Positions 30,482 to 53,855 of a DNA stretch of 64,000 nucleotides are shown here, piece by piece (the first letter of the stretch is position 1; each line of letters opens with the position of its first letter). The notes beneath the pieces are model-generated. The model made no database searches. It saw nothing but the letters and a program-made list of their open reading frames with translations, and was not told where the DNA came from. Made by a program: the position numbers and the translations under genes. Origin of the DNA: Alphaproteobacteria bacterium (GTDB lineage: Bacteria; Pseudomonadota; Alphaproteobacteria; CAAHEQ01; UBA3637); assembly GCA_017647405.1 (NCBI GenBank), contig JAGCKR010000041.1, positions 45,218 through 109,217 on the forward strand, in the 5' to 3' direction.

Positions 30482-31471
30482 TTAAGTAACCTCTGTAACG
30501 GCGCGGATGTTTCCATCTCTGTTAATTTGAACAACGCGCAGTTTCTCTTTCATTTCACGATATGTTTTTTCTCGATCCGTTGTTGGATAGGAATGCAAAA
30601 TTCGGCCAATAAATGCTTTATAAGCAGCATCAGGATTTTCAGCGTGGATGGTGGCAAAACAGTTGTCATGCCCAGATCCCATTAATTCCCACAACGCGCC
30701 GGCATTTGATGTTGAAATTTCGCCACCAATAATAGCATCTGGTGTGAAACGAACAGCAAGGTCAATCACTTTTTTATAATCAAAGTTATTCGTTAATTCT
30801 GTACGTGGTAAAACGATGTGTACACGGTTTTTATGTGGCACAATGAGTTCTCGGGTATCTTCAATCGTTAAGATGCGTTTATGCGGGTCTAAAACCTTTA
30901 TAAGGTTATTTAAAAAGGTTGTTTTACCCGTCGCTGTTGCCCCTGAAATTAAAACGTGGTCTCCGCGTTTAATTGAAAGCATTAAACGCTCAAAAGGATC
31001 ATCCGGATCTTCAACTTGTTTCAAGCGATTAAGTGGGCGTAATCTTTCACCGACTGAAAGACCGAAATCGCTCATGGAAATGTTTACATCTTCTTTATAA
31101 ACACGAATAGCCATAGCGATTCCACCGGTTAAATCGTTGTTGTCATACATAACGTTTCTGCCAGCAATCCCAGTAAAACGATGTCCGCCGGGGAGGGTGG
31201 CATAAACGGTTGGTGTTCCTTGTGTCGGGTCAAAAGCATAATCATAGGAATTCGCAATAATATACATGATATTATTAAGGTATTCCCTTGTTAATTTGGG
31301 GTCATCATAATAATGCCACGGGTGCGCATGCCTACCTCTTAGACGTAACCAAATGCCGCCTGGAGAATCAATAGCAACTTCTTCAACATTATCTTGGTTA
31401 TACCAATAAGCTATCGGCCTGAGGGCTGATTCTAAAACCTTATAGGTATCTGCAATTGATATTTCCCCCAT
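30482..31471 (-). CDS. virB11: Type IV secretion ATPase VirB11
   Basis: 329 aa. Walker A SGATATGKTTFLN, TIEDTREL, GGEISTSNAGALWELMGSGH, ATIHA. Confidence 0.9.
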   Translation of the reverse strand: MGEISIADTYKVLESALRPIAYWYNQDNVEEVAIDSPGGIWLRLRGRHAHPWHYYDDPKLTREYLNNIMYIIANSYDYAFDPTQGTPTVYATLPGGHRFTGIAGRNVMYDNNDLTGGIAMAIRVYKEDVNISMSDFGLSVGERLRPLNRLKQVEDPDDPFERLMLSIKRGDHVLISGATATGKTTFLNNLIKVLDPHKRILTIEDTRELIVPHKNRVHIVLPRTELTNNFDYKKVIDLAVRFTPDAIIGGEISTSNAGALWELMGSGHDNCFATIHAENPDAAYKAFIGRILHSYPTTDREKTYREMKEKLRVVQINRDGNIRAVTEVT

Positions 31472-31484
31472 TTTTTACCCTTTT

Positions 31485-34400
31485 TTAAAATAACTTATCC
31501 GATGAGCCTGTTTTTGGAAGAACCGGTGTTACTTTTCTTTCTTTAACAGGTTGTTTTTCAACGCTGTCACCTGTATAGATAGGTTGATTATCTTCTTCTT
31601 TATCAGATGATTTTTTATCATCGGCATGATATTTATCAGATGGTTGGTAATATTTGCTATCATCAGCAGCTGGTGTTTCATCTGTTGTTTTATCATCCTC
31701 TTCTTCAACAACCTCTTCTTCTACTTCTTCCTCTTCTTCTTTTTGGGAAGCCGTTCTGTTGTCAACCCATGAAGAGGTATCAGGTTTTTGTGCTTCCATT
31801 GATGGTTCTTCGGCTTCAGCAACATCATCTTCTTCAGATCTTAGCCACAAATCTTCATTCGGGAAGACGGTTAAGCGAGTTCCTGATGGCACGTAAATCA
31901 CAACAGGAATATTTGCAGAATCTTGAACAAGTTGATCAAAGATTGTTTGCATAGATTCAATGAAGTTTTCACGGGCATCATTTGCAGCTTCTGTTTTTGA
32001 AGATGTAATTGTATTTCCATATTGATCTTGATACATATCGGCATTTGTTGCCATCATATATGAAATAGCAGAAGTGACAACACTTGTCATAATTGGTTTA
32101 CCGAATTTCTTAACCAATTCATCATCAAGATAGGCTGCAACACCGCCACGACCTTGAGCATCACCAGATTTTCCTTCAAAGGAGAACGCTCCGCCATCCG
32201 GACGAATTAAACGTTGCCAGGTAATTTCAAGTTTGGCTGCTCGTTTATCACTGCCTTGTTCACCTGCAAACGTTCCGATTAATCTAGAGCCTGCTGGAAT
32301 GATAATATTTCTTCCTTTTTCAGAATAAATATGTCTTTCAACAATAGCAGTTACAGGTGCATCTGAATATCTAGAGTCAATAGATCTTGTTAAAACAGCT
32401 GGAATAGCTTTATCTTTTAAGATCATACGAGACATATCAACCGGATATGAAGAAACGATTTTATTAACACCGATTGATTTCCAGTTAGCATCAGCTTTTT
32501 TGCGCGCCATAGCTTTGATTTTTGAATTTGGTGTAATCAACCCTCTGGAGCTCATTCCCGCTTTCATGCCTTCTCTTTTTTTGGTTAACAATTCTTGCAT
32601 TTGTTGAACTTGTTCCGGTGTGGGTTTCATTTTTTTATCAGCAAAATTTGGTCTGATACGGCCTTGTTCATCACCTGTTGTGCTTAATGGACGCCCATCC
32701 ATAGAATAAGGACGACCATCTTGAACATATCCAATCATAATACCGTTATCATCTAAAATGGATCCATCCGGTGTGACTTCATATAATTTACTTCCAAACG
32801 GAATACGACGTGTGCCGGCTTTTCCATAACCGCCTTTGCCACTTACTAATGATTCAAGTTCTTCAGCAGAAAGCGCTTGACGTAATTTTTCTAATTCTTC
32901 CGGTGTTAAGAAATCTTCCAAAGCAGCCAAACCTTTTTCAGCAAGAGCTTGACGTAATTTTTCTAATTCTTCCGGTGTGAGATATTTACTTAATTCTTTC
33001 CATACATTGGATGCGCTTGTTTTTATGCCACATTTATCTAGGCGAACATCAACACCTTTGATTTGCCCCATTGATTGACCATCTTTATCAAACAACATAC
33101 CATCTTCACGAATAGTTGCATAAATTTCGCCATTCAGATCAATGATAGAGCCATTCGGTGTAATTGTGGCAATTTTTTCATTTTGAAGATTGAAAACATC
33201 ACAACCTGAAATTTTACCAAACACGTTTCCATTGGCATCAACAAGCAATCCGCTTTCAATATCGATTGGTAACTCACCATTGTCAGAAAGTTCACCAATG
33301 CGATTTCCATTAGCATCAACGATTTCACCTGTTGGCAAAACTTGAGCAATAAATTCACCTTTGTTATTTGTGATAATGCCATCAGCAGAGAAAGTACCTT
33401 TGATGTTGCCATTTTCGTCAAAAATCAATTCTTTATCTCTACCTGTATTCCAACCGATAACATTACCATTTTCATCGATAACTTTACCGTCTGCTGTTAA
33501 TGTTCCGATTTTCTCACCATTTATATCAACAACAGAGCCATCTAAAGTGACACGACCTTTGGGTTTGCCGTCTTCACCAAGGATAAGTCCGCGTTCTTGT
33601 GTAGCCCCAATTACTTCGCCTGTTTTATGGTCAACAACGGTTCCATCATTTCGGCTACATCCGATATTAATTCCATTGGTGTCAACAACGGTTGAGTCTG
33701 GCATGGTTCTACCGATATATTTTCCTTCGGGTGACATAACAATACCATTTCTAGTAACGCGACCGATTTTTTCGCCGGCAGAATTAATGGCCCATTTATT
33801 TGGTAAAATTCGACCAACAACTGTTCCTTTTGCATCGATAACTTGTCCGTTAAAGGCGGCTTGTCCAACAACTTTACAGTCATTTGTGATTAAATAGGAG
33901 GGGATAAGAGCACCGGTGATTTTGTATGTGCCTTCTTTAACGGTTCCATTAACAGCGATTTTACCCTTTAATTCACCATTAGGCAAAACAATCTGCCCAT
34001 TATGAATTAATGTTCCCATAAACGAGCCTTCTTGAGAGATAGCTGTATAGAATGGTAAAACAGCACCTGCTAACGGTTCATTCTTCCCTAATATTGTTCC
34101 GTCATCTAAAATGCGAAGTGTTTTATTATCAGTTGCATCTAAAATATCCCCTGATAAGGTTGTTCTTCCCAAAACTTCACCGCGATAACTAAAAGGTAAC
34201 CCTTGTTGAACAAGACCACCTTTTTGAGGCATGGTGTTGAATAAAGAACGTTCTCGAATACCGGCCACAGATCCATCACTTAATGCTCTTCCGGTCATTT
34301 GATTGTCTTTACCGATAACGGCTCCATCGGCTGCAACTGTTCCAAGAATTTTGGCATAATCATCAACCGCAACTCCAAATGGTGCTTTACCACCAGCCCA

Positions 34401-37400
34401 TACGTTATCTGTTGTCAACGCAACACCAAGAGGCATTTGAACGGCAATATTTTTTTCATCTTGATTTGTGATAACCGCAGCTGTTTGTGTTTTACCAATT
34501 AAAAGTCCCGATTTACCAACGAATGTAGAGACAGGTAATGTCATACCTCGGATAAGATCTTTTTCGTTATAAAGAGCTCTGGTACCGGCAACAACAGATT
34601 CTTTTTTGCCTCTTAAGAAGATTGTTCCGTTTAAGCTTTCACGCCCAACTGTATTCAATGCATTTGAAACAGCAGGTCCGGCATTTAAAACATTTCCTTG
34701 AATTTGTTTGATTAAATTGGTGGTTAACCCATTCATCATAACAGAACCAACAGGTTTTGAACTGCCGAGACTTAAAATGCTTCCGTTTGTTGAAACAAGA
34801 CCAATTGTTTTAGCGGCACTGTTTTCAGAAACAAACAAATCTTTATCTGTTAATCTGGCAATGAAGTTACCATCTTTTGTAACAGTTTGTGGTGCAATAA
34901 CAAGACCTTTAATCTTGCCTTTTGCATCAATAGCTTCCCCATATTCATTAATCAAATATGTTGTTTGATTGTTATCTGTAAATCCAACAGAATTAAGAGG
35001 AATAAATGTTCCGGTGATATCTCCCTTGCTATTTGCAATGCGATTATCTGATAATGCATATCCTAAAACAGATTTTCCAAGACTGATTCGCCCATCTGAT
35101 TGCAAGATACCGGCAAATTTACCAGAGTTATCCACCGCAACACCTTGTGGTAAAACTCGGCCGACAACTTCATCCATATTGTTATAAATGAAATCAGAAG
35201 CATAAAGATATCCTTTATCTTTTTCTGTTTGGATCGTGTTGTTAATAGACATATAACCCAATAAAGCACCATTTGGTTTGACAGCCAATCCGGTTTTAAC
35301 AAGATAACCGATTTGTGTGCCAGCTTTATCAAGAGCAATGCCATTTGTCATCAGTCTACCGATTGATCTTGCGTTTTTCCCAAGTAAATCAGCATCAAAA
35401 CTTGTCCACCCGATTAATTCATTTTTTGTGTCAACATAAATACCGAACGGAAGCATTCTACCGATAACACCGTCATTTTCATTAATAACTAATCCAAACG
35501 GAGTTGCTTGACCGGCAATATTACCATTTTTATCCATAATGGCACCGGTGACGCTTGGATAACCGATTAATTCTTCACCCGAAAAGGCAACGGACAAACG
35601 TTTAAAGACGCCACCGATGATTTTTTCATCTGATGAAATAGCAATTCCGTTCGCAAGAATTTTACCGATAACGGTCTTCTTTGGAGAAACAACTTCCCCT
35701 TTGGGAGTAACAGATCCAATTTCTTTTCCAAGAACAGATAAAACTGTTCCCTGTGGCATGATAAATCCAAGAACTTTTCCGTCTTTATCTGTTACGGTTC
35801 CGTTTGCTCTGATTGCACCGATAACATCGCCATCTGTGTTTTTAAGGGTACCATCAACCGTCATTGTTCCGAGATAATTATTATCTACATCAAGGAAAGA
35901 TGTTTTATCAGGAATAAGTGTACCGATAATTTGTTGTGTTTCACCACTGATAGCTGTGAGATTTGGTAATATACGTGCAAATTTTTCACCTTCTTGATTC
36001 AAACCATATCCAATTTTTGAATTATAGCGGCCAAGAATTAAACCTTCCGGTGAAACGATAACACCATCTGGTGGAATAACACCCAAAAATTTTCCTTTTT
36101 CATCAGAAACGATTCCGTTGGAATCAATAGTACCGATAACATTACCATTTTGGTCAATCACTTTATTGCCCATAACTGACCAGCCAGTTGGTGTTCCGTC
36201 TGCGCCTAACACAACGCCGCCAGATCCGCTTGTCCCTGTTTCACCAACAAGGGTACCAAGAACTTCTTTTCCATCAAGAGAAATAACAGAACCGTCTTCT
36301 TGTAAACAACCGATTATTTTACCTTTTAAGTCCATAACTTTACCATCTAAACGAACACGTCCGATGATAACTCCTTCAGCATTTTTAACAACGCCTTTAA
36401 TTGCCATGGCTCCGATAATTTTTCCGTCATTATTAACAACGGTTCTATCAGGTGTGATACATCCAAATGGTTCATTATTACTATCTGTTAAATCACCGCC
36501 TAAAGTGACAAGACCCAACAAACGACAACCATCAGCGATTGCTGATGCTCTTGGAACAACAACGCCGATGATGCGGTTTTGATCATTTCGTACATAGCTG
36601 TCTGTCATCACTTTTCCGACTTGTTCACCCGAATCGTTAATAGCAATTCCGTTTGGGAAAACTGAACCGATTTGTTGACATCCAAAACCAATAACACGAC
36701 CTTTGGGTAAAATAGCTCCGATTGGTTTTTTGCCTGCCGTCACGGATCCATCTGGATTAATGCAGCCGATAATGGCTCCTTGTGGTCCAACGGCTTTTCC
36801 TTCAGAATTTACAAAACCGATAATTTGGCCTTTTTCATTAATAATCAGACTAAGAGGAATAGCCCCGCCAATATCTGTTCCGGCATTATCAATAACGCTA
36901 CCATCGATAAGTGTTTTTCCAACAGTTTGGTTATAAGAATCACGCACTTCACCATTTTGCATGATTTTGCCGGTTAATTGACAGCCAGGAGCAACGGCAA
37001 CGCCTTGTGGAATTGTTCCCCCAATAAGTTCATTTGCGCTGTTAACAACCAATCCATTTGGTTTCACTGTTCCAAGAACATTATTTGACGCATCCATTAC
37101 TGTTCCGTCCGGAATAATGCCCCCGATAACATTTCCTGTTAAATCGGCAACCAATCCCCATGGAGTTAAAACACCCATGACACGATTATTTAAATTTGCA
37201 ACGGCTCCGTTTGCGAGTGGTTTACCGATAACAGCTCCTTTTTCATTCACAATTGTACCGTCTTTTAAAAGTTTACCAATAATTGTTCCTGTCATATCCA
37301 TTGCAGAAACGATTGGAACAGCGGCACCTAAAACAGTCAATTCGGAATCAACAATCGTGTCATCGCCTAATAAACGGCCAATTTTTTCGCCATTTTCATT

Positions 37401-38240
37401 GATAACATCTCCATTTGGATTAATTTTCCCCATAATTTCGTTTTTAAGATTGAGAGGCAATTTTTCCGGAATGGCAATAGCAACAATTTTTCCGTCTTTA
37501 TTAACATATAAGCCGTTTTCTGTTTTTTTGATAACTTCGCCATCGATAACAATAGAACCATCTTCGTTAACAGGGTATAACTTGCCGTCTAAACCCATGG
37601 CGTATGTTGGTTCTTTTTGAGCATCATCTTTCGAAACTGTTTCACAAATAACGCAATCTTTTGAATCTGTTGACTGTGCTTTAACCTGAACGGTTTTTTC
37701 ATGAGTTCTGTCTGAAAAACCAGCAGCTTCAGCAGAATCTTCTTCCCATTGAATTGTTAAAACGTTTTGAATTTGTCTTAAAGAAACAGGATTCCATAAT
37801 ACTTTGATGAAGCATTCTTGACCAACTGCAAGAGATTTAGTTTCACCACATGTTGTTTCTATTGAAAAACCGTCTTGTTGATTTTCAAGAAATGTTGCAC
37901 CTTTATAAAGAACGGGACCATTTTCAGCGGTTAACTTAATAAGAGCTTCTACTTGTGAACCGATAACAACGTTGTTCATATCAATTTGCTCTGGAACAAC
38001 TTTTAAAGAGGCCTCTCCACGAGAAAATGGATCAACTTCTTTACTTGGATCTTCCTGTTCTGTTTTATATTCAGGGATCCAGTTAATGGGTTCAACCGTA
38101 TTTTGAACCGGCGCTTTGTCGGAAATAAAGGAAAGCGCTACAAAAAATATAATAAGAAGAAATAATCCACCGAACAAAAGTGTTCTATTGCTTTTTTTTA
38201 CATATTGCTCACTAGAGCTTAATCCTCTGTTTTCTTTCAT
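31485..38240 (-). CDS. virB10: Giant VirB10/TrbI-family protein (2251 aa) with a ~1500-residue internal repeat array
   Basis: TM helix LLFGGLFLLIIFFVALSFI near the N-terminus. C-terminal TrbI/VirB10 core (nt ~31850-32460): SSYPVDMSRMILKDKAIPAVLTRSIDS, IIIPAGSRLIGTF, ITWQRLIRPDGG, GRGGVAAYLDDE, VIYVPSGTRLTVFPNEDLW. Located between virB9 and virB11. See findings for the repeat array. Confidence 0.85.
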   Translation of the reverse strand: MKENRGLSSSEQYVKKSNRTLLFGGLFLLIIFFVALSFISDKAPVQNTVEPINWIPEYKTEQEDPSKEVDPFSRGEASLKVVPEQIDMNNVVIGSQVEALIKLTAENGPVLYKGATFLENQQDGFSIETTCGETKSLAVGQECFIKVLWNPVSLRQIQNVLTIQWEEDSAEAAGFSDRTHEKTVQVKAQSTDSKDCVICETVSKDDAQKEPTYAMGLDGKLYPVNEDGSIVIDGEVIKKTENGLYVNKDGKIVAIAIPEKLPLNLKNEIMGKINPNGDVINENGEKIGRLLGDDTIVDSELTVLGAAVPIVSAMDMTGTIIGKLLKDGTIVNEKGAVIGKPLANGAVANLNNRVMGVLTPWGLVADLTGNVIGGIIPDGTVMDASNNVLGTVKPNGLVVNSANELIGGTIPQGVAVAPGCQLTGKIMQNGEVRDSYNQTVGKTLIDGSVIDNAGTDIGGAIPLSLIINEKGQIIGFVNSEGKAVGPQGAIIGCINPDGSVTAGKKPIGAILPKGRVIGFGCQQIGSVFPNGIAINDSGEQVGKVMTDSYVRNDQNRIIGVVVPRASAIADGCRLLGLVTLGGDLTDSNNEPFGCITPDRTVVNNDGKIIGAMAIKGVVKNAEGVIIGRVRLDGKVMDLKGKIIGCLQEDGSVISLDGKEVLGTLVGETGTSGSGGVVLGADGTPTGWSVMGNKVIDQNGNVIGTIDSNGIVSDEKGKFLGVIPPDGVIVSPEGLILGRYNSKIGYGLNQEGEKFARILPNLTAISGETQQIIGTLIPDKTSFLDVDNNYLGTMTVDGTLKNTDGDVIGAIRANGTVTDKDGKVLGFIMPQGTVLSVLGKEIGSVTPKGEVVSPKKTVIGKILANGIAISSDEKIIGGVFKRLSVAFSGEELIGYPSVTGAIMDKNGNIAGQATPFGLVINENDGVIGRMLPFGIYVDTKNELIGWTSFDADLLGKNARSIGRLMTNGIALDKAGTQIGYLVKTGLAVKPNGALLGYMSINNTIQTEKDKGYLYASDFIYNNMDEVVGRVLPQGVAVDNSGKFAGILQSDGRISLGKSVLGYALSDNRIANSKGDITGTFIPLNSVGFTDNNQTTYLINEYGEAIDAKGKIKGLVIAPQTVTKDGNFIARLTDKDLFVSENSAAKTIGLVSTNGSILSLGSSKPVGSVMMNGLTTNLIKQIQGNVLNAGPAVSNALNTVGRESLNGTIFLRGKKESVVAGTRALYNEKDLIRGMTLPVSTFVGKSGLLIGKTQTAAVITNQDEKNIAVQMPLGVALTTDNVWAGGKAPFGVAVDDYAKILGTVAADGAVIGKDNQMTGRALSDGSVAGIRERSLFNTMPQKGGLVQQGLPFSYRGEVLGRTTLSGDILDATDNKTLRILDDGTILGKNEPLAGAVLPFYTAISQEGSFMGTLIHNGQIVLPNGELKGKIAVNGTVKEGTYKITGALIPSYLITNDCKVVGQAAFNGQVIDAKGTVVGRILPNKWAINSAGEKIGRVTRNGIVMSPEGKYIGRTMPDSTVVDTNGINIGCSRNDGTVVDHKTGEVIGATQERGLILGEDGKPKGRVTLDGSVVDINGEKIGTLTADGKVIDENGNVIGWNTGRDKELIFDENGNIKGTFSADGIITNNKGEFIAQVLPTGEIVDANGNRIGELSDNGELPIDIESGLLVDANGNVFGKISGCDVFNLQNEKIATITPNGSIIDLNGEIYATIREDGMLFDKDGQSMGQIKGVDVRLDKCGIKTSASNVWKELSKYLTPEELEKLRQALAEKGLAALEDFLTPEELEKLRQALSAEELESLVSGKGGYGKAGTRRIPFGSKLYEVTPDGSILDDNGIMIGYVQDGRPYSMDGRPLSTTGDEQGRIRPNFADKKMKPTPEQVQQMQELLTKKREGMKAGMSSRGLITPNSKIKAMARKKADANWKSIGVNKIVSSYPVDMSRMILKDKAIPAVLTRSIDSRYSDAPVTAIVERHIYSEKGRNIIIPAGSRLIGTFAGEQGSDKRAAKLEITWQRLIRPDGGAFSFEGKSGDAQGRGGVAAYLDDELVKKFGKPIMTSVVTSAISYMMATNADMYQDQYGNTITSSKTEAANDARENFIESMQTIFDQLVQDSANIPVVIYVPSGTRLTVFPNEDLWLRSEEDDVAEAEEPSMEAQKPDTSSWVDNRTASQKEEEEEVEEEVVEEEDDKTTDETPAADDSKYYQPSDKYHADDKKSSDKEEDNQPIYTGDSVEKQPVKERKVTPVLPKTGSSDKLF

Positions 38241-38296: not shown

Positions 38297-40039
38297 TTAT
38301 TGAACACGAACAACTGAACAGCCAAAACCACGACGTCCCAATCTTTTGCACAATTTATCAGCCAATGTGATATCTTTAATTGGGCCGACCCGTAAACGGA
38401 ACAATTCACGCATATTGCTGTCTGCTGTTGCATCAACGGAATAATATGGTTCATAACCTCTTAAAACATCTGAATTTTTTTCAAGGATTTTTTCCCAGAT
38501 GCTTTCAAGTTCCGTTATATCCGCATGTGTTCCAAGTTCAATAGAAATTGTTTCACTGGATGCAAGAGCGGAATTTCTTTGTGTTGAAATAGGCATTTGA
38601 CTCATAACACCCACAATGCCGGCAGAAGCTTTTGGTGAATTCATCACATTTGTTGGAATGGATTGAATTGGTGCCATATTTGAGGTGTAAAAAGAATTAT
38701 TTTGTTGTTCAAAACCAGCCAAATAATTTGGAGCATAAGAATCATATGTCATGCCTTGTTCATAATTTGCTCCCATTTGTGGCGTATAGCCGTTTTGGTT
38801 ATATCCGCCCATCATTTGTGGTGTTGGAGCAAGTGAACTTTTTATGTTTGGTTTAGTTTCTGTAGGTTTATTGGTTATAGCAGTTGGATCATATGCAGGT
38901 GAATCACTGCTCATCACACTTGGACGGCCTGTATATGGTGAAACAGTCATATTTTCAGAACCACTATAATCTGTGTATTCCAAACCAGCACTTGGATCTC
39001 TTCTGAGTTTTAAGCAAATCAATTTTTTACCATTTCTTAAAACTAAATCCCCAATGGCTTCTACAACAATTAAGCGACTGTTTGGACCCGTTGTTCTAAA
39101 TCCGACTGGTACTTCAGTATCCTGAACCAGAAGGCTGACAACTGGTCTTTGAGTCATTGTTAATGCTTTTGGTCCTAAATCAATATAGGTAAAAATATTA
39201 TCGCGCCAAACGTTATCTGGTGCAATATCAACATCAGATGGATTTGGAATATAAATATCAATATCGAAGCGAATGTTTTCAGGATCAACAGGGATGCTTT
39301 GCAACCAATCTTTTGGTCCTGTTGAAGCCGTGTTAATCCCTAATTGTGGGTTTTGTCCGCCACTGCGACCCATTGCCCATCCGGGAGCTTTATTGGAATT
39401 TAAAAAGCCATTGCCGACAGCTCTGTTTGTGGCGCCGTTTGTAGCTCCTAAACGTCCACCATTTTCAACCGGTGTGTAACGCGGGCCAACCAAAATATCA
39501 ACAACAGATTGTGAAATTTTATCGGCATTATATGTTTCGCTTCTTAAATAAAAAACATAACGATTACCGGAGCGACCAAAAATAATCATATTACTGTCAA
39601 CACCAATATAAGATGGGTCAGCATATAAAAGAAGAGAATTTGGTGCAGCAATTTCGCCCCCAAAAGATTCAGGTGATCCGATATGAACTTTTTCAATTAA
39701 TTCCCATGTTGGTAAGTTAATAAGAGTCATCATACCTTCTCTTATGCGAATAGGTAAAATTACATCCGGTGACCAAGCATATTTTGAATATCCTGGTTTG
39801 GATTGCCCTTCACCTAAATGCGCCATTGGATCATTCCATGCTTTTTGTTGCATTCCCAGTGAATGCAAATAATTTGGGTTAACAGATTCATAATCGCCGT
39901 TTGTTTGAGCAATAGCGTCGCTTAAACGTTCACTTTCAACATCTGTAGGCAACCCTTCAGAATGTGCAACAACAGAAAATAAAACAAAAAAAGCAGCTGT
40001 TGACAGCCAACCTTGTCTGTGAAGTTTTTGTTTGAACAT
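38297..40039 (-). CDS. virB9: VirB9-family protein with long low-complexity linker and C-terminal SPOR-like domain
   Basis: Start at MFKQKLHRQGWLSTAAFFVLFSVVAHS (GGAG RBS; the track starts at 40078). VirB9/CagX-like blocks IFGRSGNRYVFYLRSE, IFTYIDLG, PVVSLLVQD ... LIVVEAIGDLVLRNGKKLICLKL. C-terminal LFRLRVGPIKDITLADKLCKRLGRRGFGCSVVRV resembles SPOR. Confidence 0.8.
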   Translation of the reverse strand: MFKQKLHRQGWLSTAAFFVLFSVVAHSEGLPTDVESERLSDAIAQTNGDYESVNPNYLHSLGMQQKAWNDPMAHLGEGQSKPGYSKYAWSPDVILPIRIREGMMTLINLPTWELIEKVHIGSPESFGGEIAAPNSLLLYADPSYIGVDSNMIIFGRSGNRYVFYLRSETYNADKISQSVVDILVGPRYTPVENGGRLGATNGATNRAVGNGFLNSNKAPGWAMGRSGGQNPQLGINTASTGPKDWLQSIPVDPENIRFDIDIYIPNPSDVDIAPDNVWRDNIFTYIDLGPKALTMTQRPVVSLLVQDTEVPVGFRTTGPNSRLIVVEAIGDLVLRNGKKLICLKLRRDPSAGLEYTDYSGSENMTVSPYTGRPSVMSSDSPAYDPTAITNKPTETKPNIKSSLAPTPQMMGGYNQNGYTPQMGANYEQGMTYDSYAPNYLAGFEQQNNSFYTSNMAPIQSIPTNVMNSPKASAGIVGVMSQMPISTQRNSALASSETISIELGTHADITELESIWEKILEKNSDVLRGYEPYYSVDATADSNMRELFRLRVGPIKDITLADKLCKRLGRRGFGCSVVRVQ

Positions 40040-40196
40040 AGAATCTCTCCTCTTTATTTTTGTAATATATTTACACAATAGAACAAAAATATTTAAAAAG
40101 TCTACAAAAAAATGAAAAAAGATGAGATTTTAATGTAAAAAAATTTTTAAGCGTTTTTTTATATCGTTTTTCAAGAGGGAAAAATGCAAAAAATGA

Positions 40197-40892
40197 TTAA
40201 GATTCAGGTTTTTTTATCACAAGTTGATGGACTTTAAAGCCAAGGGGATTTTTAAGTCTTTGTTCCCAAGTTAAATCCCTGAGTTGTTCGAATGCAACAT
40301 TTAGAGTAACAACCCAAGTGGATTCTTTTGGTTCTTGAGAAAGGTGTTTCATTTCTGTGAATTTAACTTCAGCACGCCAAATATTTTCGCGATTGTTTGT
40401 TTTGTATGGTTGAACAAATAAAATTTGAACATTTCGTGTCAAACCTTCCTCTTTGGCTTGTTTGATCCAATCATCGGCATATTCAGTAAATTTTGCATAA
40501 ACTGTTGGAGCGCTCATCCAGTTTACATCGCCATCGATGCTGGATCTTCTTTCCAGTTCTTGAACATTTGAACCGATGCTGAAATACGAAAGTAAATATT
40601 GTCTGATAAAAGATTCTGTCAGTGTTCGAATATTGATCTGATTTAAATTTGGTTTAACAATATTAATAACCTGTTCGTTTTTATTGAGTGTTGTTAGAAA
40701 AAACGGTTGAACTCTGACAATCGGTACCAATGATACAAGAGCATTAATAAGCATAATTGTTGTAAGAGATGAAACAACAAGAACAAGCGCAAAAACCCTT
40801 GCCATCCAAAGATAACGTCGTTCTTTAACAGCTTCTTCTGATAAATCTTGCCCTTCTTTTTTTTTGTTAGGTATCTGATTGCCCATGTTCAT
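40197..40892 (-). CDS. virB8: VirB8-family protein (copy 1)
   Basis: 231 aa, bitopic: cytoplasmic N-terminus, TM ARVFALVLVVSSLTTIMLINALV, then an NTF2-like periplasmic domain (ESFIRQYLLSYFS ... NIWRAEVKFTE). Confidence 0.8.
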   Translation of the reverse strand: MNMGNQIPNKKKEGQDLSEEAVKERRYLWMARVFALVLVVSSLTTIMLINALVSLVPIVRVQPFFLTTLNKNEQVINIVKPNLNQINIRTLTESFIRQYLLSYFSIGSNVQELERRSSIDGDVNWMSAPTVYAKFTEYADDWIKQAKEEGLTRNVQILFVQPYKTNNRENIWRAEVKFTEMKHLSQEPKESTWVVTLNVAFEQLRDLTWEQRLKNPLGFKVHQLVIKKPES

Positions 40893-40911: not shown

Positions 40912-41091
40912 TTAAGATAACCAATCGGGAAGGGCTGGTGCTTTTTCAAGCTCAAGACAAGCACAAGGTGATTTTTTAAGTTCTGAATAATCCGGACCGA
41001 TGCCCACTGGTTCTTTTTCGTAAACACTTCCACAGGCAGCAGCTAAAACAGTTAATCCTAAAATAAATAAAATAACAAAATATTTTTTCAT
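40912..41091 (-). CDS. virB7: VirB7-like small lipoprotein (59 aa; below the ORF-track size cut-off)
   Basis: Hand translation: MKKYFVILFILGLTVLAAACGSVYEKEPVGIGPDYSELKKSPCACLELEKAPALPDWLS. Lipobox LAAAC. Sits between two virB8 paralogs, as rvhB7 does in Rickettsiales. Confidence 0.7.
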   Translation of the reverse strand: MKKYFVILFILGLTVLAAACGSVYEKEPVGIGPDYSELKKSPCACLELEKAPALPDWLS

Positions 41092-41179: not shown

Positions 41180-41857
41180 TTATTTTTTAATGTCTTCATC
41201 GTATTTTTCAACATAAAATCCAAATGGATTTGATAAGATTCTTGAATAAACGTGTCTGTTTGGATGATGATTGATTGTTATGGTTGCAATACGTTTTTGA
41301 ATTTTTGGTTTAACAACAGGATCATATGGATTGAATAAAAAGACATCAAATTCAACGGTGTATATATTTCCTAGTTTAGAAATGCGTGTAATATCGACAC
41401 TTCTAGTTTCTCTTGTTGAAGTTATCTGTTCGATTTTTTCTTTCATATTTTTTGCAAATTTTGAATAAACTGATGGAGAGGAAAGTTTTCTGATATCTCC
41501 GGCTGCCCCCCATCTGGAATTCATTTCAATTTTGTCTGGAAAGTGGGAAATGCGTTTATCAATATAATATCTGATAAGCATTTCATCTAATAATTCGCGG
41601 TTGATGCGATTACTGTTTGCTGTTGAATTAAGCAATCCTTTTACAGGTAATGTATCAATCTGAATATGGTCTAATGTATGCATAGGTGAGGGCAAAATTT
41701 GCGCAATCATTTTCAATTTTGGTGCCATTTGAACAAGTGTTAAAACAATGAATAAATTGATGGCAATAGAAATTGAAGCAATGGTCATCCAAAGCTTTGC
41801 CCAGTAAACAGCAAATTGACTGCGTGCTTTTTGGTTTTTAATCAAAGATGAAATCAT
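41180..41857 (-). CDS. virB8: VirB8-family protein (copy 2, divergent paralog)
   Basis: 225 aa with the same bitopic layout (TM WMTIASISIAINLFIVLTLV; EMLIRYYIDKRIS ... NIYTVEFDVFLF). The start abuts the stop of the upstream ORF. Confidence 0.75.
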   Translation of the reverse strand: MISSLIKNQKARSQFAVYWAKLWMTIASISIAINLFIVLTLVQMAPKLKMIAQILPSPMHTLDHIQIDTLPVKGLLNSTANSNRINRELLDEMLIRYYIDKRISHFPDKIEMNSRWGAAGDIRKLSSPSVYSKFAKNMKEKIEQITSTRETRSVDITRISKLGNIYTVEFDVFLFNPYDPVVKPKIQKRIATITINHHPNRHVYSRILSNPFGFYVEKYDEDIKK

Positions 41858-43396
41858 TTAAAGGCCTCCATTAAGGCAGCTTTTATTTATTTTTTTGTTA
41901 AATTCTTTTTTGATGTCATTTTTATTTTTTTTCTTGATTTCTTCAAAAAGCGCGTTTTCTGCATTTTTTTCTTTTATCAGGTGATCAATTTCCTGTGCAT
42001 TTATAATTGTGAAGTTAACTTCACCATTAATATCTTTTTCAAGCGCATTCACATAGTGATAACTCTTATAAGCTTTTGAGGACATCATAATTTGTTTAAG
42101 GTTTCGATAGTCTTCAGAATCTTTGGGTAAAGTGTCGAGCATTTTTAGTTGCTCTGAATATGACATTTTTAAATAATCATTAAATTTATTTGGTTTACTT
42201 TTTGAGTTGAAAAGATCTGAATGATTTTTTGTTATACGATCGCGAACAATTTGAATATTTTTGCTTTTGGCAGAAACTAATTCTTCCTCAATTTTTGAAA
42301 GAGAGGCAACATCATTTGCATCAATGCTTGATTGAATGCCTATTTCTTTGAGTTGATTGTTTATTTTATTAACAATTTTTGATTTGCCCTCTTGAACAAT
42401 ATTTAACACATTTTCAGCAGTTGTTTTTTCTTTTTTAACAGCTTGATAAACATTTAATCTATTATTTTGTTCATCAACGCCTTTATGTCTTGCCTCTTCA
42501 TTTAAGACAAGTGTTTTAGGCTGAAAAATTTTTGCCATTTCACCATTTTCATTATATGTTGTAAATCCGCTTTGAATAAATTGTTTCCATGGTACAGGCC
42601 ATTCAGGAAAAACGGTTTTTGATTTTGCCGGATCTTCATTAAACCACATAATTTCATGTGCTGGCGGTAAGGCTTTTGGAGGTTTGGGAAATGATTTTTG
42701 AGCGGGTGTTAATTTACTAACAGTTTCGGGAGGTAATGTTTTTAAAAAAGCGTTATAAGCTGCTTCATTTTGTTCGAAAGAATTTGCAGCTGAAATACCG
42801 GCAATTCTTCCTGTCCTTCCAAGAATTTGATTGATGCTGGTTAAAAATGAATTCACCTGTTCCGAATAAATATATTTTTGGTCTTCCCACAAATCAAAAG
42901 ATTTTCCTTTTTTTAATGTGCCGTATTTTTCAGGTGTTGCATAAACATCTTTTAAAACTTCTCTTCCTAGATACCAATTAGCAAACAATTCTGCATTGGC
43001 ATCTTCACCGGTACTTGTTTTTTTAGGAGCGCTTGATAAAATATCAACTGTTAATTTTAATTCTTTTTCATCATATTCTTGAGTAATATTTTGCCAAGCT
43101 TCTTTTGGGTTTTCGTAGACATCGGAAAGTAATTTTATATTGCAAGCTTCCATTGCATTATATTTTTGATTGACAAGATCAAGTCTTAGTTTTTCATTAT
43201 CCTCTTTTTCATATGTATCTTTTAAAGATTTTAATTTCGTTTGCAGCGCATGAACTTGCTCAAGATACATAATTTCTGCGGTATAATCTGTTGTTTCTTG
43301 TTCAGATGTTGTTTGTTCAACAGAGGGGGCAGTTGCATAACAGTTGAATGAAAAAAATGAAATACTTGCTACTGTCAAAAATAAAAAATGTTTCAT
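41858..43396 (-). CDS. Secreted Lys/Glu-rich helical protein, unknown family (T4SS-linked gene 7 of 7)
   Basis: Start moved to MKHFLFLTVASISFFSFNCYA (signal peptide); the track start at 43471 overlaps the upstream gene. 512 aa. The stop is directly adjacent to the virB8 copy 2 start. Confidence 0.6.
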   Translation of the reverse strand: MKHFLFLTVASISFFSFNCYATAPSVEQTTSEQETTDYTAEIMYLEQVHALQTKLKSLKDTYEKEDNEKLRLDLVNQKYNAMEACNIKLLSDVYENPKEAWQNITQEYDEKELKLTVDILSSAPKKTSTGEDANAELFANWYLGREVLKDVYATPEKYGTLKKGKSFDLWEDQKYIYSEQVNSFLTSINQILGRTGRIAGISAANSFEQNEAAYNAFLKTLPPETVSKLTPAQKSFPKPPKALPPAHEIMWFNEDPAKSKTVFPEWPVPWKQFIQSGFTTYNENGEMAKIFQPKTLVLNEEARHKGVDEQNNRLNVYQAVKKEKTTAENVLNIVQEGKSKIVNKINNQLKEIGIQSSIDANDVASLSKIEEELVSAKSKNIQIVRDRITKNHSDLFNSKSKPNKFNDYLKMSYSEQLKMLDTLPKDSEDYRNLKQIMMSSKAYKSYHYVNALEKDINGEVNFTIINAQEIDHLIKEKNAENALFEEIKKKNKNDIKKEFNKKINKSCLNGGL

Positions 43397-43400
43397 TCTA

Positions 43401-43973
43401 TTATTCCTCCGGTAAGTCGTTTTCTGTTGGATCCCAATATGTTTTATGTCGTTTTGCTGTTGCAAGACCAATTAATGCATTATATTGTAATTGTGTGGCT
43501 CTCAATTGTTTTTGAATGAGTAATAATTTTGCCCATGCAATTTTAATGGCTGCAGTTGTTAGTAATAATTTAACTTTGTTTTCATTTGATTCCAAAGAGT
43601 TACTTCTTGATGCGGCTCTGGAAGAATTGTCAATTTTCTTTTCCATATCCTCAATAATGTTAAAGATTTTTTTTGTGTTATATTTTAACACTAATATTCT
43701 GGCCATCATTTGAAGGTTAGCTTGTTGTCGGATATATTCTCTTTTTTTTACAAAATCATAGTCCCCCTCATGATCTCCATAAGGATCGTCTGCATATAAT
43801 CTCATGTTGCTTTTCATAATATTTTCAACTTTAGAGGTGCCAGGATCAGCTCTGCGAATAATAACTTCTTTAGGCGCCTTATTCCCTGCAACAAGTTGTT
43901 CTGCATAACTGGTTGAACAAAAAGCGAATCCCGCGATGATTAAGATGATAAATAACGGTAAATTTTTTCTCAT
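43401..43973 (-). CDS. Secreted helical protein, unknown family (gene 6 of 7)
   Basis: Signal peptide MRKNLPLFIILIIAGFAFCSTSYA. 190 aa with a long C-terminal amphipathic helix KVKLLLTTAAIKIAWAKLLLIQKQLRATQLQYNALIG. Confidence 0.6.
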   Translation of the reverse strand: MRKNLPLFIILIIAGFAFCSTSYAEQLVAGNKAPKEVIIRRADPGTSKVENIMKSNMRLYADDPYGDHEGDYDFVKKREYIRQQANLQMMARILVLKYNTKKIFNIIEDMEKKIDNSSRAASRSNSLESNENKVKLLLTTAAIKIAWAKLLLIQKQLRATQLQYNALIGLATAKRHKTYWDPTENDLPEE

Positions 43974-44287
43974 TTTTGTTCTCCCAATAAATCGACGGCT
44001 GTTTCTTTGGCTGTTTCTCTTGCTTCTTTGAAAACTGCAGAAGCTCCATCTTGTAATGTTGATATGGTTTTATTCACCAGTGCTGTTGCCTGTTGTTTAT
44101 AATGATTATATTGCTTTTGCCCTTCTGAAATTCCTCTTGATACCATATCACCAACACTGCCCGGTTCCAAAACCGGACCGCCAACACTTTGAATCCAACA
44201 GGCATCACAAGGGATGCAGATACCTCCTTCAGCTGAAAAAGATGCCGCAGTTAAAAATAAAAACAAAATAGAATAAATTATTTTCAT
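43970..44287 (-). CDS. Small secreted Cys-containing protein, unknown family (gene 5 of 7)
   Basis: Signal peptide MKIIYSILFLFLTAASFSA, then GGICIPCDACWIQSVGGP (three Cys). 105 aa; 4-nt overlaps on both sides. Confidence 0.55.
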   Translation of the reverse strand: MKIIYSILFLFLTAASFSAEGGICIPCDACWIQSVGGPVLEPGSVGDMVSRGISEGQKQYNHYKQQATALVNKTISTLQDGASAVFKEARETAKETAVDLLGEQK

Positions 44288-52952: not shown

Positions 52953-53855
52953 TTAAAGTCCTTCCCGCCTACTATACGATAAAGGATGAGAATTTTCAAC
53001 AGTCTTTTTTAATCTATCTTGTAAAATATGTGTGTAAATTTCCGTTGTGGTGATATTTGCATGGCCCAACATTTTTTGAACCGATCGCAAATCGGCGTCA
53101 TGTTGAATGAGATGGCTGGCAAAAGAGTGTCTAAAAACATGGGGTGAAACCCGAGATAACGGCATTCCTTTTTCGGTGGCAATTGTTTTCATAGCTTTAA
53201 AAAAACCATCGCGTGTTATATGCCCTGTTTTTGAACTGGAAGGGAAAAGCCATTTTGAATTTTTCTTTTTTTCATTTTTACTTCGTTCATCTAGCCAATT
53301 TTTTAAGGATTCTCTGGCATTTTCATTAAGAGGAACAATCCGTTCTTTATTTCCTTTTCCGATAATAGTTAGTGTTGATAAATCGTGTGTAACAACCGTT
53401 ATCGGTAATCCAACAAGTTCACTAACGCGCATACCTGTTGCGTAAAGTAATTCAAACATAAAATAAATTTGTTTGTTTTTTTCTTGAGCTCCTTTAATTA
53501 ATAAATCTATTTCAGCTTCTGTTAAATATTTTGGAAGTGATTTATTTAATTTAGGAGATTGAAGATAATCCGCAGGATTTTTTTTGATAATATCTTCTGA
53601 GTATAAAAAACGATAAAATTCTCGCATGGCACAAAGACGTCTTGCCCCTGTTTTGGCACTTAAACGTGAAGATTTTAAAAATGCGATATAATCTTGTAAA
53701 TCTTCTTTTGTTGCTTTTTCTAATCGTGTTTTTTTTGAATCTAAAAAATTATAAAGCTCTTTTAAGTCACGACGATACGCAATCACGGTGTTTCCTGCCG
53801 CGCCGCGTTCAGCTAAAATCATTTCTAAAAAAGCATCGATTAATTTTAAGCTCAT
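52953..53855 (-). CDS. xerD: Tyrosine recombinase XerD (XerC/D family)
   Basis: 300 aa. N-terminal FLEMILAERGAAGNTVIAYRRDL, C-terminal HVFRHSFASHLIQHDADLRSVQKMLGHANITTTEIYTH. Confidence 0.8.
   Translation of the reverse strand: MSLKLIDAFLEMILAERGAAGNTVIAYRRDLKELYNFLDSKKTRLEKATKEDLQDYIAFLKSSRLSAKTGARRLCAMREFYRFLYSEDIIKKNPADYLQSPKLNKSLPKYLTEAEIDLLIKGAQEKNKQIYFMFELLYATGMRVSELVGLPITVVTHDLSTLTIIGKGNKERIVPLNENARESLKNWLDERSKNEKKKNSKWLFPSSSKTGHITRDGFFKAMKTIATEKGMPLSRVSPHVFRHSFASHLIQHDADLRSVQKMLGHANITTTEIYTHILQDRLKKTVENSHPLSYSRREGL

Follow-up and report, generated by a model that had tools for sequence, protein, structure and literature searches.

A giant virB10 gene and its locus

The DNA stretch studied here (the window) comprises 64,000 nucleotides (nt) of contig JAGCKR010000041.1 of assembly GCA_017647405.1 (Alphaproteobacteria bacterium), a metagenome scaffold of 172,691 bp (ENA analysis ERZ28653801, sample SAMN15830184). 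On its minus strand, positions 31485-38240 form an open reading frame (ORF) of 2251 amino acids (aa) plus stop, without any interruption, which encodes a protein of 239 kDa. The product is a homologue of VirB10, the gating subunit of type IV secretion, which extends through both membranes. An initial annotation of this DNA had described an intact ORF for a VirB10 of about five times the canonical size with a canonical core, and this description is confirmed by the match to the VirB10 family and by a locus of the order virB8, virB7-like, virB8, virB9, virB10 and virB11.

The family PF03743 (TrbI/VirB10) matches aa 1940-2133 with 113.8 bits (E 1.2e-32, cut-off 35; the Pfam scan is reported at E ≤ 0.01), and the match spans positions 2-188 of the 188 in the profile. 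With its flanks it places the core at ~31836-32441, in agreement with the ~31850-32460 annotated before. The NCBIfam equivalog-domain model NF038091 (T4SS_VirB10) scores 112.6 bits, which is under its cut-off of 220; thus the protein is a divergent member of VirB10 to which no equivalog-level name applies. In a sequence search of the PDB the first match is ComB10 (5e-16), and X. citri VirB10, TrwE and CagY come next. Foldseek matches the core with a probability of 1.00 to 6gyb_C, 2bhv, 7o3j, 3jqo and 6odi at target-normalised TM-scores of 0.45-0.59, the AlphaFold2 (AF2) model being of medium confidence in this region. DotG (7muq_AG) is matched as well, with a target-normalised TM-score of 0.59.

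The gene order is virB8, a 59-aa lipoprotein ORF, virB8, virB9, the giant virB10 and virB11 (Table 1). It is kept in the related loci L001-L012, and virB11 is syntenic in all related loci. The 59-aa ORF is a candidate for a VirB7-like protein by its size and position; in L009-L012 an ORF of 62 aa is found in the same position between the virB8 genes. The VirB9 homologue is about twice the usual size, and its product carries a C-terminal SPOR peptidoglycan-binding domain (PF05036, E 1.4e-6). No SPOR match is present in the precomputed Pfam lists for the VirB9 proteins (539-559 aa) of the split class described below. The locus is set among housekeeping genes, including those for FolD, SurA, LptD, HtpG, AhpC, RNase E, IleRS and Rho.

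Table 1. Features of the giant virB10 gene, its neighbours in the type IV secretion locus and the split counterparts (positions in the window unless a locus is named; TM, transmembrane; pLDDT, predicted local distance difference test).
Feature	Position	Strand	Remarks
Giant virB10 ORF	31485..38240	-	same protein on 7 contigs; at least 120 full-length homologues
Cytoplasmic N-tail (SSSEQYVKKSNR) and single TM helix	38124..38240	-	aa ~21-39; AF2 helix 9-39
Ig-like (PapD/ASH/MSP-like) beta-sandwich, aa 78-191	37668..38009	-	AF2 pLDDT ~80-88; Foldseek
Invariant QSTDSKDCVICE motif, CxxC, aa 189-200	37641..37676	-	C196 and C199 in 120/120
~88-90 beta-hairpin units of 17 aa, aa 213-1728	33057..37604	-	beta-flower/DUF3659; four i/i+73 Cys pairs
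Lineage-specific helical insert, aa ~1734-1800, duplicated LTPEELEKLRQAL	32841..33041	-	AF2 helices
Two extra hairpin units, aa 1811-1846, adjoining the linker to the core	32703..32810	-	GSIxDxxGxxIGY conserved
Partly helical linker, aa 1847-1933	32442..32702	-	AF2 helices, low to medium pLDDT
TrbI/VirB10 C-terminal barrel and two antenna helices	31836..32441	-	PF03743; Foldseek; dN/dS 0.04-0.07
Acidic tail, aa 2136-2251 (116 aa)	31488..31835	-	isoelectric point 4.15; pLDDT <50; poorly conserved
virB11 ATPase	30482..31471	-	PF00437 T2SSE E 1e-18; 13 nt downstream of virB10
virB9/CagX homologue, 593-aa ORF (gene callers: 580 aa)	38297..40078	-	PF03524 E 2.9e-12
virB8 copy 2	40197..40892	-	PF04335 E 3.8e-15
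59-aa lipoprotein ORF, lipobox LAAAC	40912..41091	-	gene call on the source contig
virB8 copy 1	41180..41857	-	PF04335 E 1.1e-10
Split virB10	L009:6559-14710, L010, L011:4121-12218, L012:4313-12215		two abutting genes

Domain layout

A protein search yields 233 matches at E ≤ 1e-5, and the best 120 of these 233 were aligned with MAFFT; the conservation given below refers to this alignment. For the structure, AF2 was run on two overlapping halves with alignments of 33 sequences. The half aa 1-1150 has a mean pLDDT of 82.7 and a predicted template modelling score (pTM) of 0.75, and the half aa 1101-2251 has a mean pLDDT of 74.6 and a pTM of 0.58.

The N-terminal tail, in which M1, S8 and S10 are at least 90% conserved, runs through KKSNR into the hydrophobic LLFGGLFLLIIFFVALSFI, from which the bitopic topology of VirB10 is predicted. 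The single N-terminal TM helix and the following segment of beta-sandwich character, both noted at first reading, are each recovered in the model. Foldseek pairs the sandwich (aa 78-191) with the Ig-like proteins 6fvi, 2e6j, 1m1s and Caf1M at target-normalised TM-scores of 0.6-0.7, and its residues Cys131 and Cys143 co-occur in 119 of the 120 sequences. The QSTDSKDCVICE region has low pLDDT. Its CxxC might serve redox chemistry, bind a metal or form a disulfide between subunits; the motif is also found in the N-terminal pieces of the split class (EDCNFCE).

Behind the array lies the helical insert, whose occupancy is just 0.18. A 40-nt DNA duplicate (32867-32906 and 32939-32978, 95% identical) is located inside it. 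The two antenna helices of the core are each ~30 residues long in the model (aa 2034-2064 and 2081-2109). The C-terminal tail is acidic as first described, at 116 rather than ~130 residues, and is probably disordered judging from the model. Its end (window 31488-31500, minus strand) has the conserved pattern ...PVLPKxxxxxxLF with a terminal Phe in ~87% of the homologues, which may be a docking or sorting motif.

An array of beta-hairpins

The extra mass of the protein had been attributed to a degenerate repeat of ~17 residues rich in Gly, Asp and Asn, and autocorrelation bears this out. Identity at lag 17 is 0.191 compared with 0.076 ± 0.007 in 2000 shuffled sequences (z = 16.9), and peaks are observed at each multiple of 17. 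The consensus unit is G-x-[LVI]-x-x-[DN]-G-x-[VI]-[VI]-[DN]-x-x-G-x-[VI]-[IL], with three conserved glycines at a spacing of 6/7/4. In the AF2 model the array is all-beta with a pLDDT of ~85-95 and contains ~180 short strands, alternately of 5 and 3 residues, which form ~90 beta-hairpins. The unit length is almost always 17 aa (range 15-20). Units were counted from these strands, as a hidden Markov model of 17 aa found just ~50, short profiles being weak. This count is higher than the first estimate of more than 70 units.

Three Pfam families match the array: PF21785 ('5-fold beta-flower') in 10 stretches with 215.9 bits (gathering cut-off 38), PF21784 ('4-fold beta-flower') with 70.1 bits (cut-off 25) and PF12396 (DUF3659) with 45.7 bits (cut-off 24.8). 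The beta-flower is a fold described from AlphaFold models (Durairaj 2023, PMC10584680). In it, 8, 10 or 12 short strands form a shallow barrel with hairpin 'petals' and [DNEQ]xxG tips, closed with 4-, 5- or 6-fold symmetry (PMC10584680). The present unit contains such tips, with both [DN]-G and [DN]-x-x-G. The array is of a class already catalogued, that of beta-flower-type beta-hairpins. Because of these family matches and the hairpins in the AF2 model it is not a beta-solenoid or beta-roll, which had been the initial suggestion.

The cysteines give a further view of the array. All 14 cysteines (14/14) sort into 7 pairs, and the four pairs within the array are spaced by exactly 73 residues. 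The pairs 572-645 and 1455-1528 are complete in all 120 homologues. Pair 420-493 has both cysteines in 109 sequences and neither in 11; for pair 521-594 the counts are 106 and 13, with one cysteine alone in 1. Such i/i+73 pairs would be disulfides linking hairpin n to hairpin n+4. Read as disulfides, they place the array in an oxidising compartment and bring hairpins ~4.3 units apart into contact. The overlap of the intervals 521-594 and 572-645 argues against closed barrels of five petals strung one after another. The profile autocorrelation falls monotonically without a peak at 68 or 85 aa, so there is no super-period of 4 or 5 units. Discrete closed flowers are countered by the overlapping intervals together with the missing super-period. 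A continuous spiral or covalently stapled stack with layers of ~4 hairpins fits the pairing pattern. A continuous stack agrees with the missing super-period and also with the pTM of 0.75 over 1150 residues, which is too high for independent beads on a string.

Conservation of the array

Could the giant ORF be an assembly artefact, or a decaying and non-functional gene? In favour of this, short-read metagenome-assembled genomes (MAGs) often misassemble repeat-rich genes, and the source is a metagenome scaffold. However, near-identical repetition is absent from the DNA. Tandem Repeats Finder reports no array in the array DNA, and the dispersed copies, at offsets that are multiples of 51 nt (repeat seeding), are only 60-79% identical. 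A recent expansion and assembly collapse are rejected on these grounds. Furthermore, the identical protein is called on 7 contigs, and intact orthologues of 2197-2538 aa occur in seven independent MAGs. The homologues form at least 120 clusters. The best 120 of the 233 homologues all possess beta-flower-type repeats and TrbI, are 2063-2609 aa long (median 2202) and go down to an identity of ~31%.

Occupancy in the alignment is ~1.0 over aa 251-1650. This means that the number of units is essentially invariant and that each unit has a positional orthologue. Compared with five related species, 1517 of the 1518 array codons align to each of them, and the ratio of nonsynonymous to synonymous substitution rates (dN/dS) ranges from 0.09 to 0.2 in the array, compared with 0.04-0.07 in the core. 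Purifying selection thus acts along the whole length, which together with almost gap-free homologues and the lack of DNA tandem repeats makes an artefact or a decaying gene extremely improbable. On these comparisons the array is old, fixed in length and under purifying selection.

Relatives and the split form

The related genome loci, which share the synteny of the secretion genes, are all found in MAGs with the label 'Alphaproteobacteria bacterium' (samples of sheep rectum, roe deer colon and the like). Gut metagenomes are the source of the gene and of its relatives, and nothing points to the endosymbiont that was assumed at first. In public databases the proteins are annotated automatically as 'DUF3659 domain-containing protein' or 'TrbI/VirB10 family protein'. 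The initial annotation had allowed that the architecture might be already described and common in the clade. It is common, with hundreds of 90% clusters, but no paper describing it was found. Our literature searches on VirB10, DUF3659, type IV secretion systems (T4SSs) and uncultured gut Alphaproteobacteria returned no description of a giant hairpin-repeat VirB10 and no study of the secretion systems or biology of the carriers, and none of the beta-flower papers found concerns a T4SS.

An exhaustive HMMER search with aa 1800-2251 yields 4893 relatives. The nearest ones without repeats are 500-630 aa long, and many of them share the N-tail, the TM helix and the Ig-like domain. For this reason the ancestor is deduced to have consisted of TM helix, Ig-like domain, linker and core. 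The relatives place the growth of the hairpin array between Ig-like domain and core, and two lengths of protein that have the shared N-terminus, 1498 and 1930 aa, resemble intermediates.

A second class of ~1400-1570 aa is represented by 996 matches. We considered it as a variant with a smaller array; instead, it is the C-terminal piece of a split gene. In L009-L012 an upstream N-piece of 1146-1289 aa and a downstream C-piece of 1404-1569 aa lie 1-10 nt apart. In the N-piece the N-tail, TM helix, Ig-like domain and CxxC motif precede many consecutive 17-aa repeats and the conserved end ...QEVAxNRRN. The C-piece begins with a cleavable-looking signal peptide of AxA type, behind which come xEITAIxFNGD, further repeats and the TrbI core. 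By BLASTP the N-piece aligns to aa 7-1065 of the query (E 9e-92) and the C-piece to aa 815-2140 (E 1e-127). These alignments indicate one machine part in two forms: a fused one here and, in the sister class, a split one with one piece in the inner membrane and another that is secreted to the outer membrane. If the split form is to span the envelope like other VirB10 proteins, its two arrays would have to bind each other in the periplasm. Two sister-class proteins of 1552 and 1569 aa, 17 aa apart, were inspected as a possible unit-number polymorphism, and the difference is only an alternative start-codon call. The locus tags of some MAGs of this class presumably resemble those of human-gut sets. 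Directly upstream of the first virB8 the split-class loci carry a very large gene (1417-1443 aa; L009:1-3099, L011:1-563, L012:1-828) without a Pfam match.

Proposed architecture and alternative roles

On balance we favour a VirB10 in which the hairpin array serves as a fixed-length, rigid periplasmic scaffold of the T4SS core complex. In this proposal the gene product is the envelope-spanning VirB10 of a type IVA (VirB-type) secretion system encoded on the chromosome of an uncultured gut alphaproteobacterium of low GC content. Its N-tail and single TM helix would anchor it in the inner membrane, and the TrbI barrel with the two-helix antenna would, like that of other VirB10 proteins, contribute the portion of the core complex at the outer membrane. 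Inserted between the ancestral Ig-like domain and the core, the ~90 hairpins of 17 residues would pack in the periplasm as one rigid continuous stack or spiral with ~4 to 4.3 hairpins per layer, stapled by disulfides from hairpin n to n+4. Such an array may act as a strut of fixed length, a cage wall or an extended stalk, and would enlarge the periplasmic core complex and physically couple its inner- and outer-membrane halves. With the usual ~14 copies the VirB10 subunit alone would amount to ~3.3 MDa. The partner VirB9 is likewise enlarged and carries the SPOR domain, which we count in favour of this proposal. The sister lineages with a two-gene version suggest that hairpin arrays associate non-covalently.

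Several points weigh against the scaffold. Genes for virB4, virB6, virD4 and pilins are not found in the 64-kb window. As a rough geometric guess, ~21 layers of 15-20 Å each would give 30-45 nm if straight, and a straight stack of this kind probably exceeds the normal width of the periplasm; a tilted, curved or cage-like arrangement is therefore likely. The Foldseek superpositions on compact proteins have root-mean-square deviations of 26-28 Å, which hints that the model may be curved or compact and not a straight rod. The beta-flower families share a clan with Tubby and have no assigned function (PMC10584680). The scaffold role itself is argued from conservation and topology.

Two other roles of the array have to be weighed. 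One is that of a multivalent binder of peptidoglycan, glycan or lipid which fixes the machine in the wall or membrane. The SPOR domain of the adjacent VirB9 indicates that wall anchoring matters for the machine, and the conserved D/N-x-x-G at the exposed hairpin tips would suit such a function. But no binding-site signature was found, and the invariant residues are mainly glycines, hydrophobics and cysteines, as is typical of structural constraint. Multivalent binders also usually tolerate changes in unit number, of which none is seen. We give wall or membrane binding a small chance, and it is compatible with the scaffold. The other role would put the array outside the cell, as an adhesin, a sheath or a needle-like extension in touch with host or prey, as was once proposed for the repeats of CagY. 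CagY is itself a giant VirB10 with reportedly surface-exposed repeats (PMC2581425, PMC2194252); disulfides are compatible with an outside location too, and a long rigid stack could in principle extend past the envelope. Against this, the inner-membrane anchor precedes the array and the outer-membrane barrel follows it, an order for which the default topology is periplasmic, and the co-varying cysteine pairs fit the periplasm. Surface repeats usually vary in number and evolve fast, whereas here the number is fixed, the dN/dS is low and recombinogenic DNA repeats are absent. In the split class, moreover, the array of the N-piece is tethered to the inner membrane. Projection from the cell, which the initial annotation had also considered, is thus not favoured and seems to us very unlikely.

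Returning to the periplasmic scaffold, its conserved, rigid and fixed-length addition of ~1500 residues would imply a core complex unlike the solved machines of R388, pKM101, Xanthomonas, Cag and Dot/Icm, and with it the beta-flower fold becomes part of a known machine. A bolder version, which we put forward tentatively and consider rather doubtful, is that the stapled hairpins make a rigid tube or rod, that ~14 copies build a multi-megadalton periplasmic cage or extended conduit wall, and that the array docks onto itself, covalently fused in one form and non-covalently held in the split one. If true, this would be the first function for the beta-flower/DUF3659 repeat, a type IVA secretion system of a new architectural class, present in abundant gut Alphaproteobacteria, and a multi-megadalton cage or conduit unlike any T4SS core solved so far. 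The natural pair of fused and split forms is a ready-made experiment on the communication between the halves of VirB10. Uncultured Alphaproteobacteria that are widespread in the guts of ruminants and humans carry the gene, and such an elaborate dedicated T4SS is a strong lead to their interaction with hosts or other microbes. To structural biologists of T4SSs and to researchers on repeat proteins alike this system should be of interest; a stapled stack of 17-residue hairpins is an attractive design principle for rigid protein rods.

Comparison with known systems

A comparison with canonical VirB10/TrbI/ComB10 proteins (A. tumefaciens VirB10, pKM101 TraF, R388 TrwE, X. citri VirB10 and H. pylori ComB10) shows that they share the TrbI barrel with its two-helix antenna, the cytoplasmic N-tail, the single TM helix and the gene position between virB9 and virB11. 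They are one-fifth as long, and their short Pro-rich periplasmic linker is replaced here by the Ig-like domain and the ~90 hairpins.

DotG had been named as the only precedent of a repeat-expanded VirB10, which overlooks CagY of the H. pylori Cag T4SS, the textbook giant repeat orthologue. CagY likewise has a VirB10 core after a very large repeat region, and an enlarged core complex. The CagY repeats are alpha-helical and arise from direct DNA repeats that recombine in frame, by which the repeat number varies and function or immune evasion is tuned (PMC2581425, PMC2194252, PMC5954226). In contrast, the present array consists of beta-hairpins, has no DNA-level repeats and keeps its unit number. 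CagY is the closest functional precedent and DotG the other. DotG/IcmE of the Dot/Icm system (type IVB) of Legionella and Coxiella has in common with our protein a VirB10-like C-terminal domain and an N-terminal repeat expansion. It is about half the size, and its repeats are pentapeptide repeats, a family that is not among the Pfam matches of the giant VirB10 at E ≤ 0.01. The locus here is VirB-type (virB8/9/11) and not dot/icm.

The same hairpin repeat with [DNEQ]xxG tips is found in the beta-flower proteins (PF21784/PF21785/PF21786, clan CL0395; DUF3659, PF12396), of which the described ones are small single domains (8-12 strands, ~96 aa), compared with ~180 strands in one array here. A long run of hairpins, of ~20 residues each, in a continuous antiparallel ribbon is also characteristic of the RHS/YD shells of Rhs effectors, teneurins and TcB/TcC. 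No solved analogue of the array is found in the PDB by Foldseek, whose only long-range matches are weak ones of this RHS/teneurin/TcB-TcC type (8h8b, 6fb3 and 6sup; probability ≤ 0.28, TM-score 0.07). Some homologues have precomputed PF05593 matches; the giant VirB10 has none at E ≤ 0.01, and it differs from RHS in its unit of 17 aa and the absence of the YD motif.

The chromosomal rvh locus of Rickettsiales is also VirB-type and likewise has housekeeping genes as its neighbours. The hallmark of Rickettsia rvh is a pair of virB8 genes with a small ORF between them (PMC2653234), and the same arrangement, followed by virB9, virB10 and virB11, is observed here. The VirB10 of R. typhi has 481 aa (PMC2653234). 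In rvh systems virD4 comes after virB11, and proliferated virB6 and virB4 genes lie elsewhere. Unlike in rvh, both virB8 genes are on one strand and virB11 is followed by AhpC and HtpG without a virD4; the carriers belong to a gut MAG lineage for which there is no indication of a Rickettsiales affiliation, and an assignment to RF32/CAG-239 would be a guess.

Neighbouring genes

Upstream of virB8 the window carries at 41858-47587 (minus strand) seven ORFs of 105-537 aa with signal-peptide-like N-termini, none of which has a Pfam or NCBIfam match. The run is syntenic in L005 and L007. These ORFs may encode unrecognised T4SS components (VirB5-, VirB2- or VirB6-like) or secreted substrates. Two of them, of 105 and 190 aa (43401-44287, minus strand), overlap by 4 nt and correspond to one frame in L001 and L004, which suggests that the present genome has a split or rearranged version of the gene. 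The start of the second ORF resembles a signal peptide of its own and finds no counterpart in the alignment with the relatives.

Further along, an ORF of 1090 aa (49680-52952, minus strand) joins an inner-membrane permease of LptF/LptG type (aa 7-345) and a complete LptD (LptD_N 409-483, LptD 649-1022) in one frame, and the former LptD signal peptide MKNSLYLFLIGTICFMGTTTQAQ is kept as an internal hydrophobic segment. Its product could be a single-chain trans-envelope exporter of lipopolysaccharide or could be cleaved into two proteins. Between this ORF and a gene for a TPR protein lies a tyrosine recombinase of 300 aa (52953-53855, minus strand; Phage_integrase with a SAM-like N-domain), which by its size and context is probably a housekeeping XerC/XerD and not the integrase of a mobile element.

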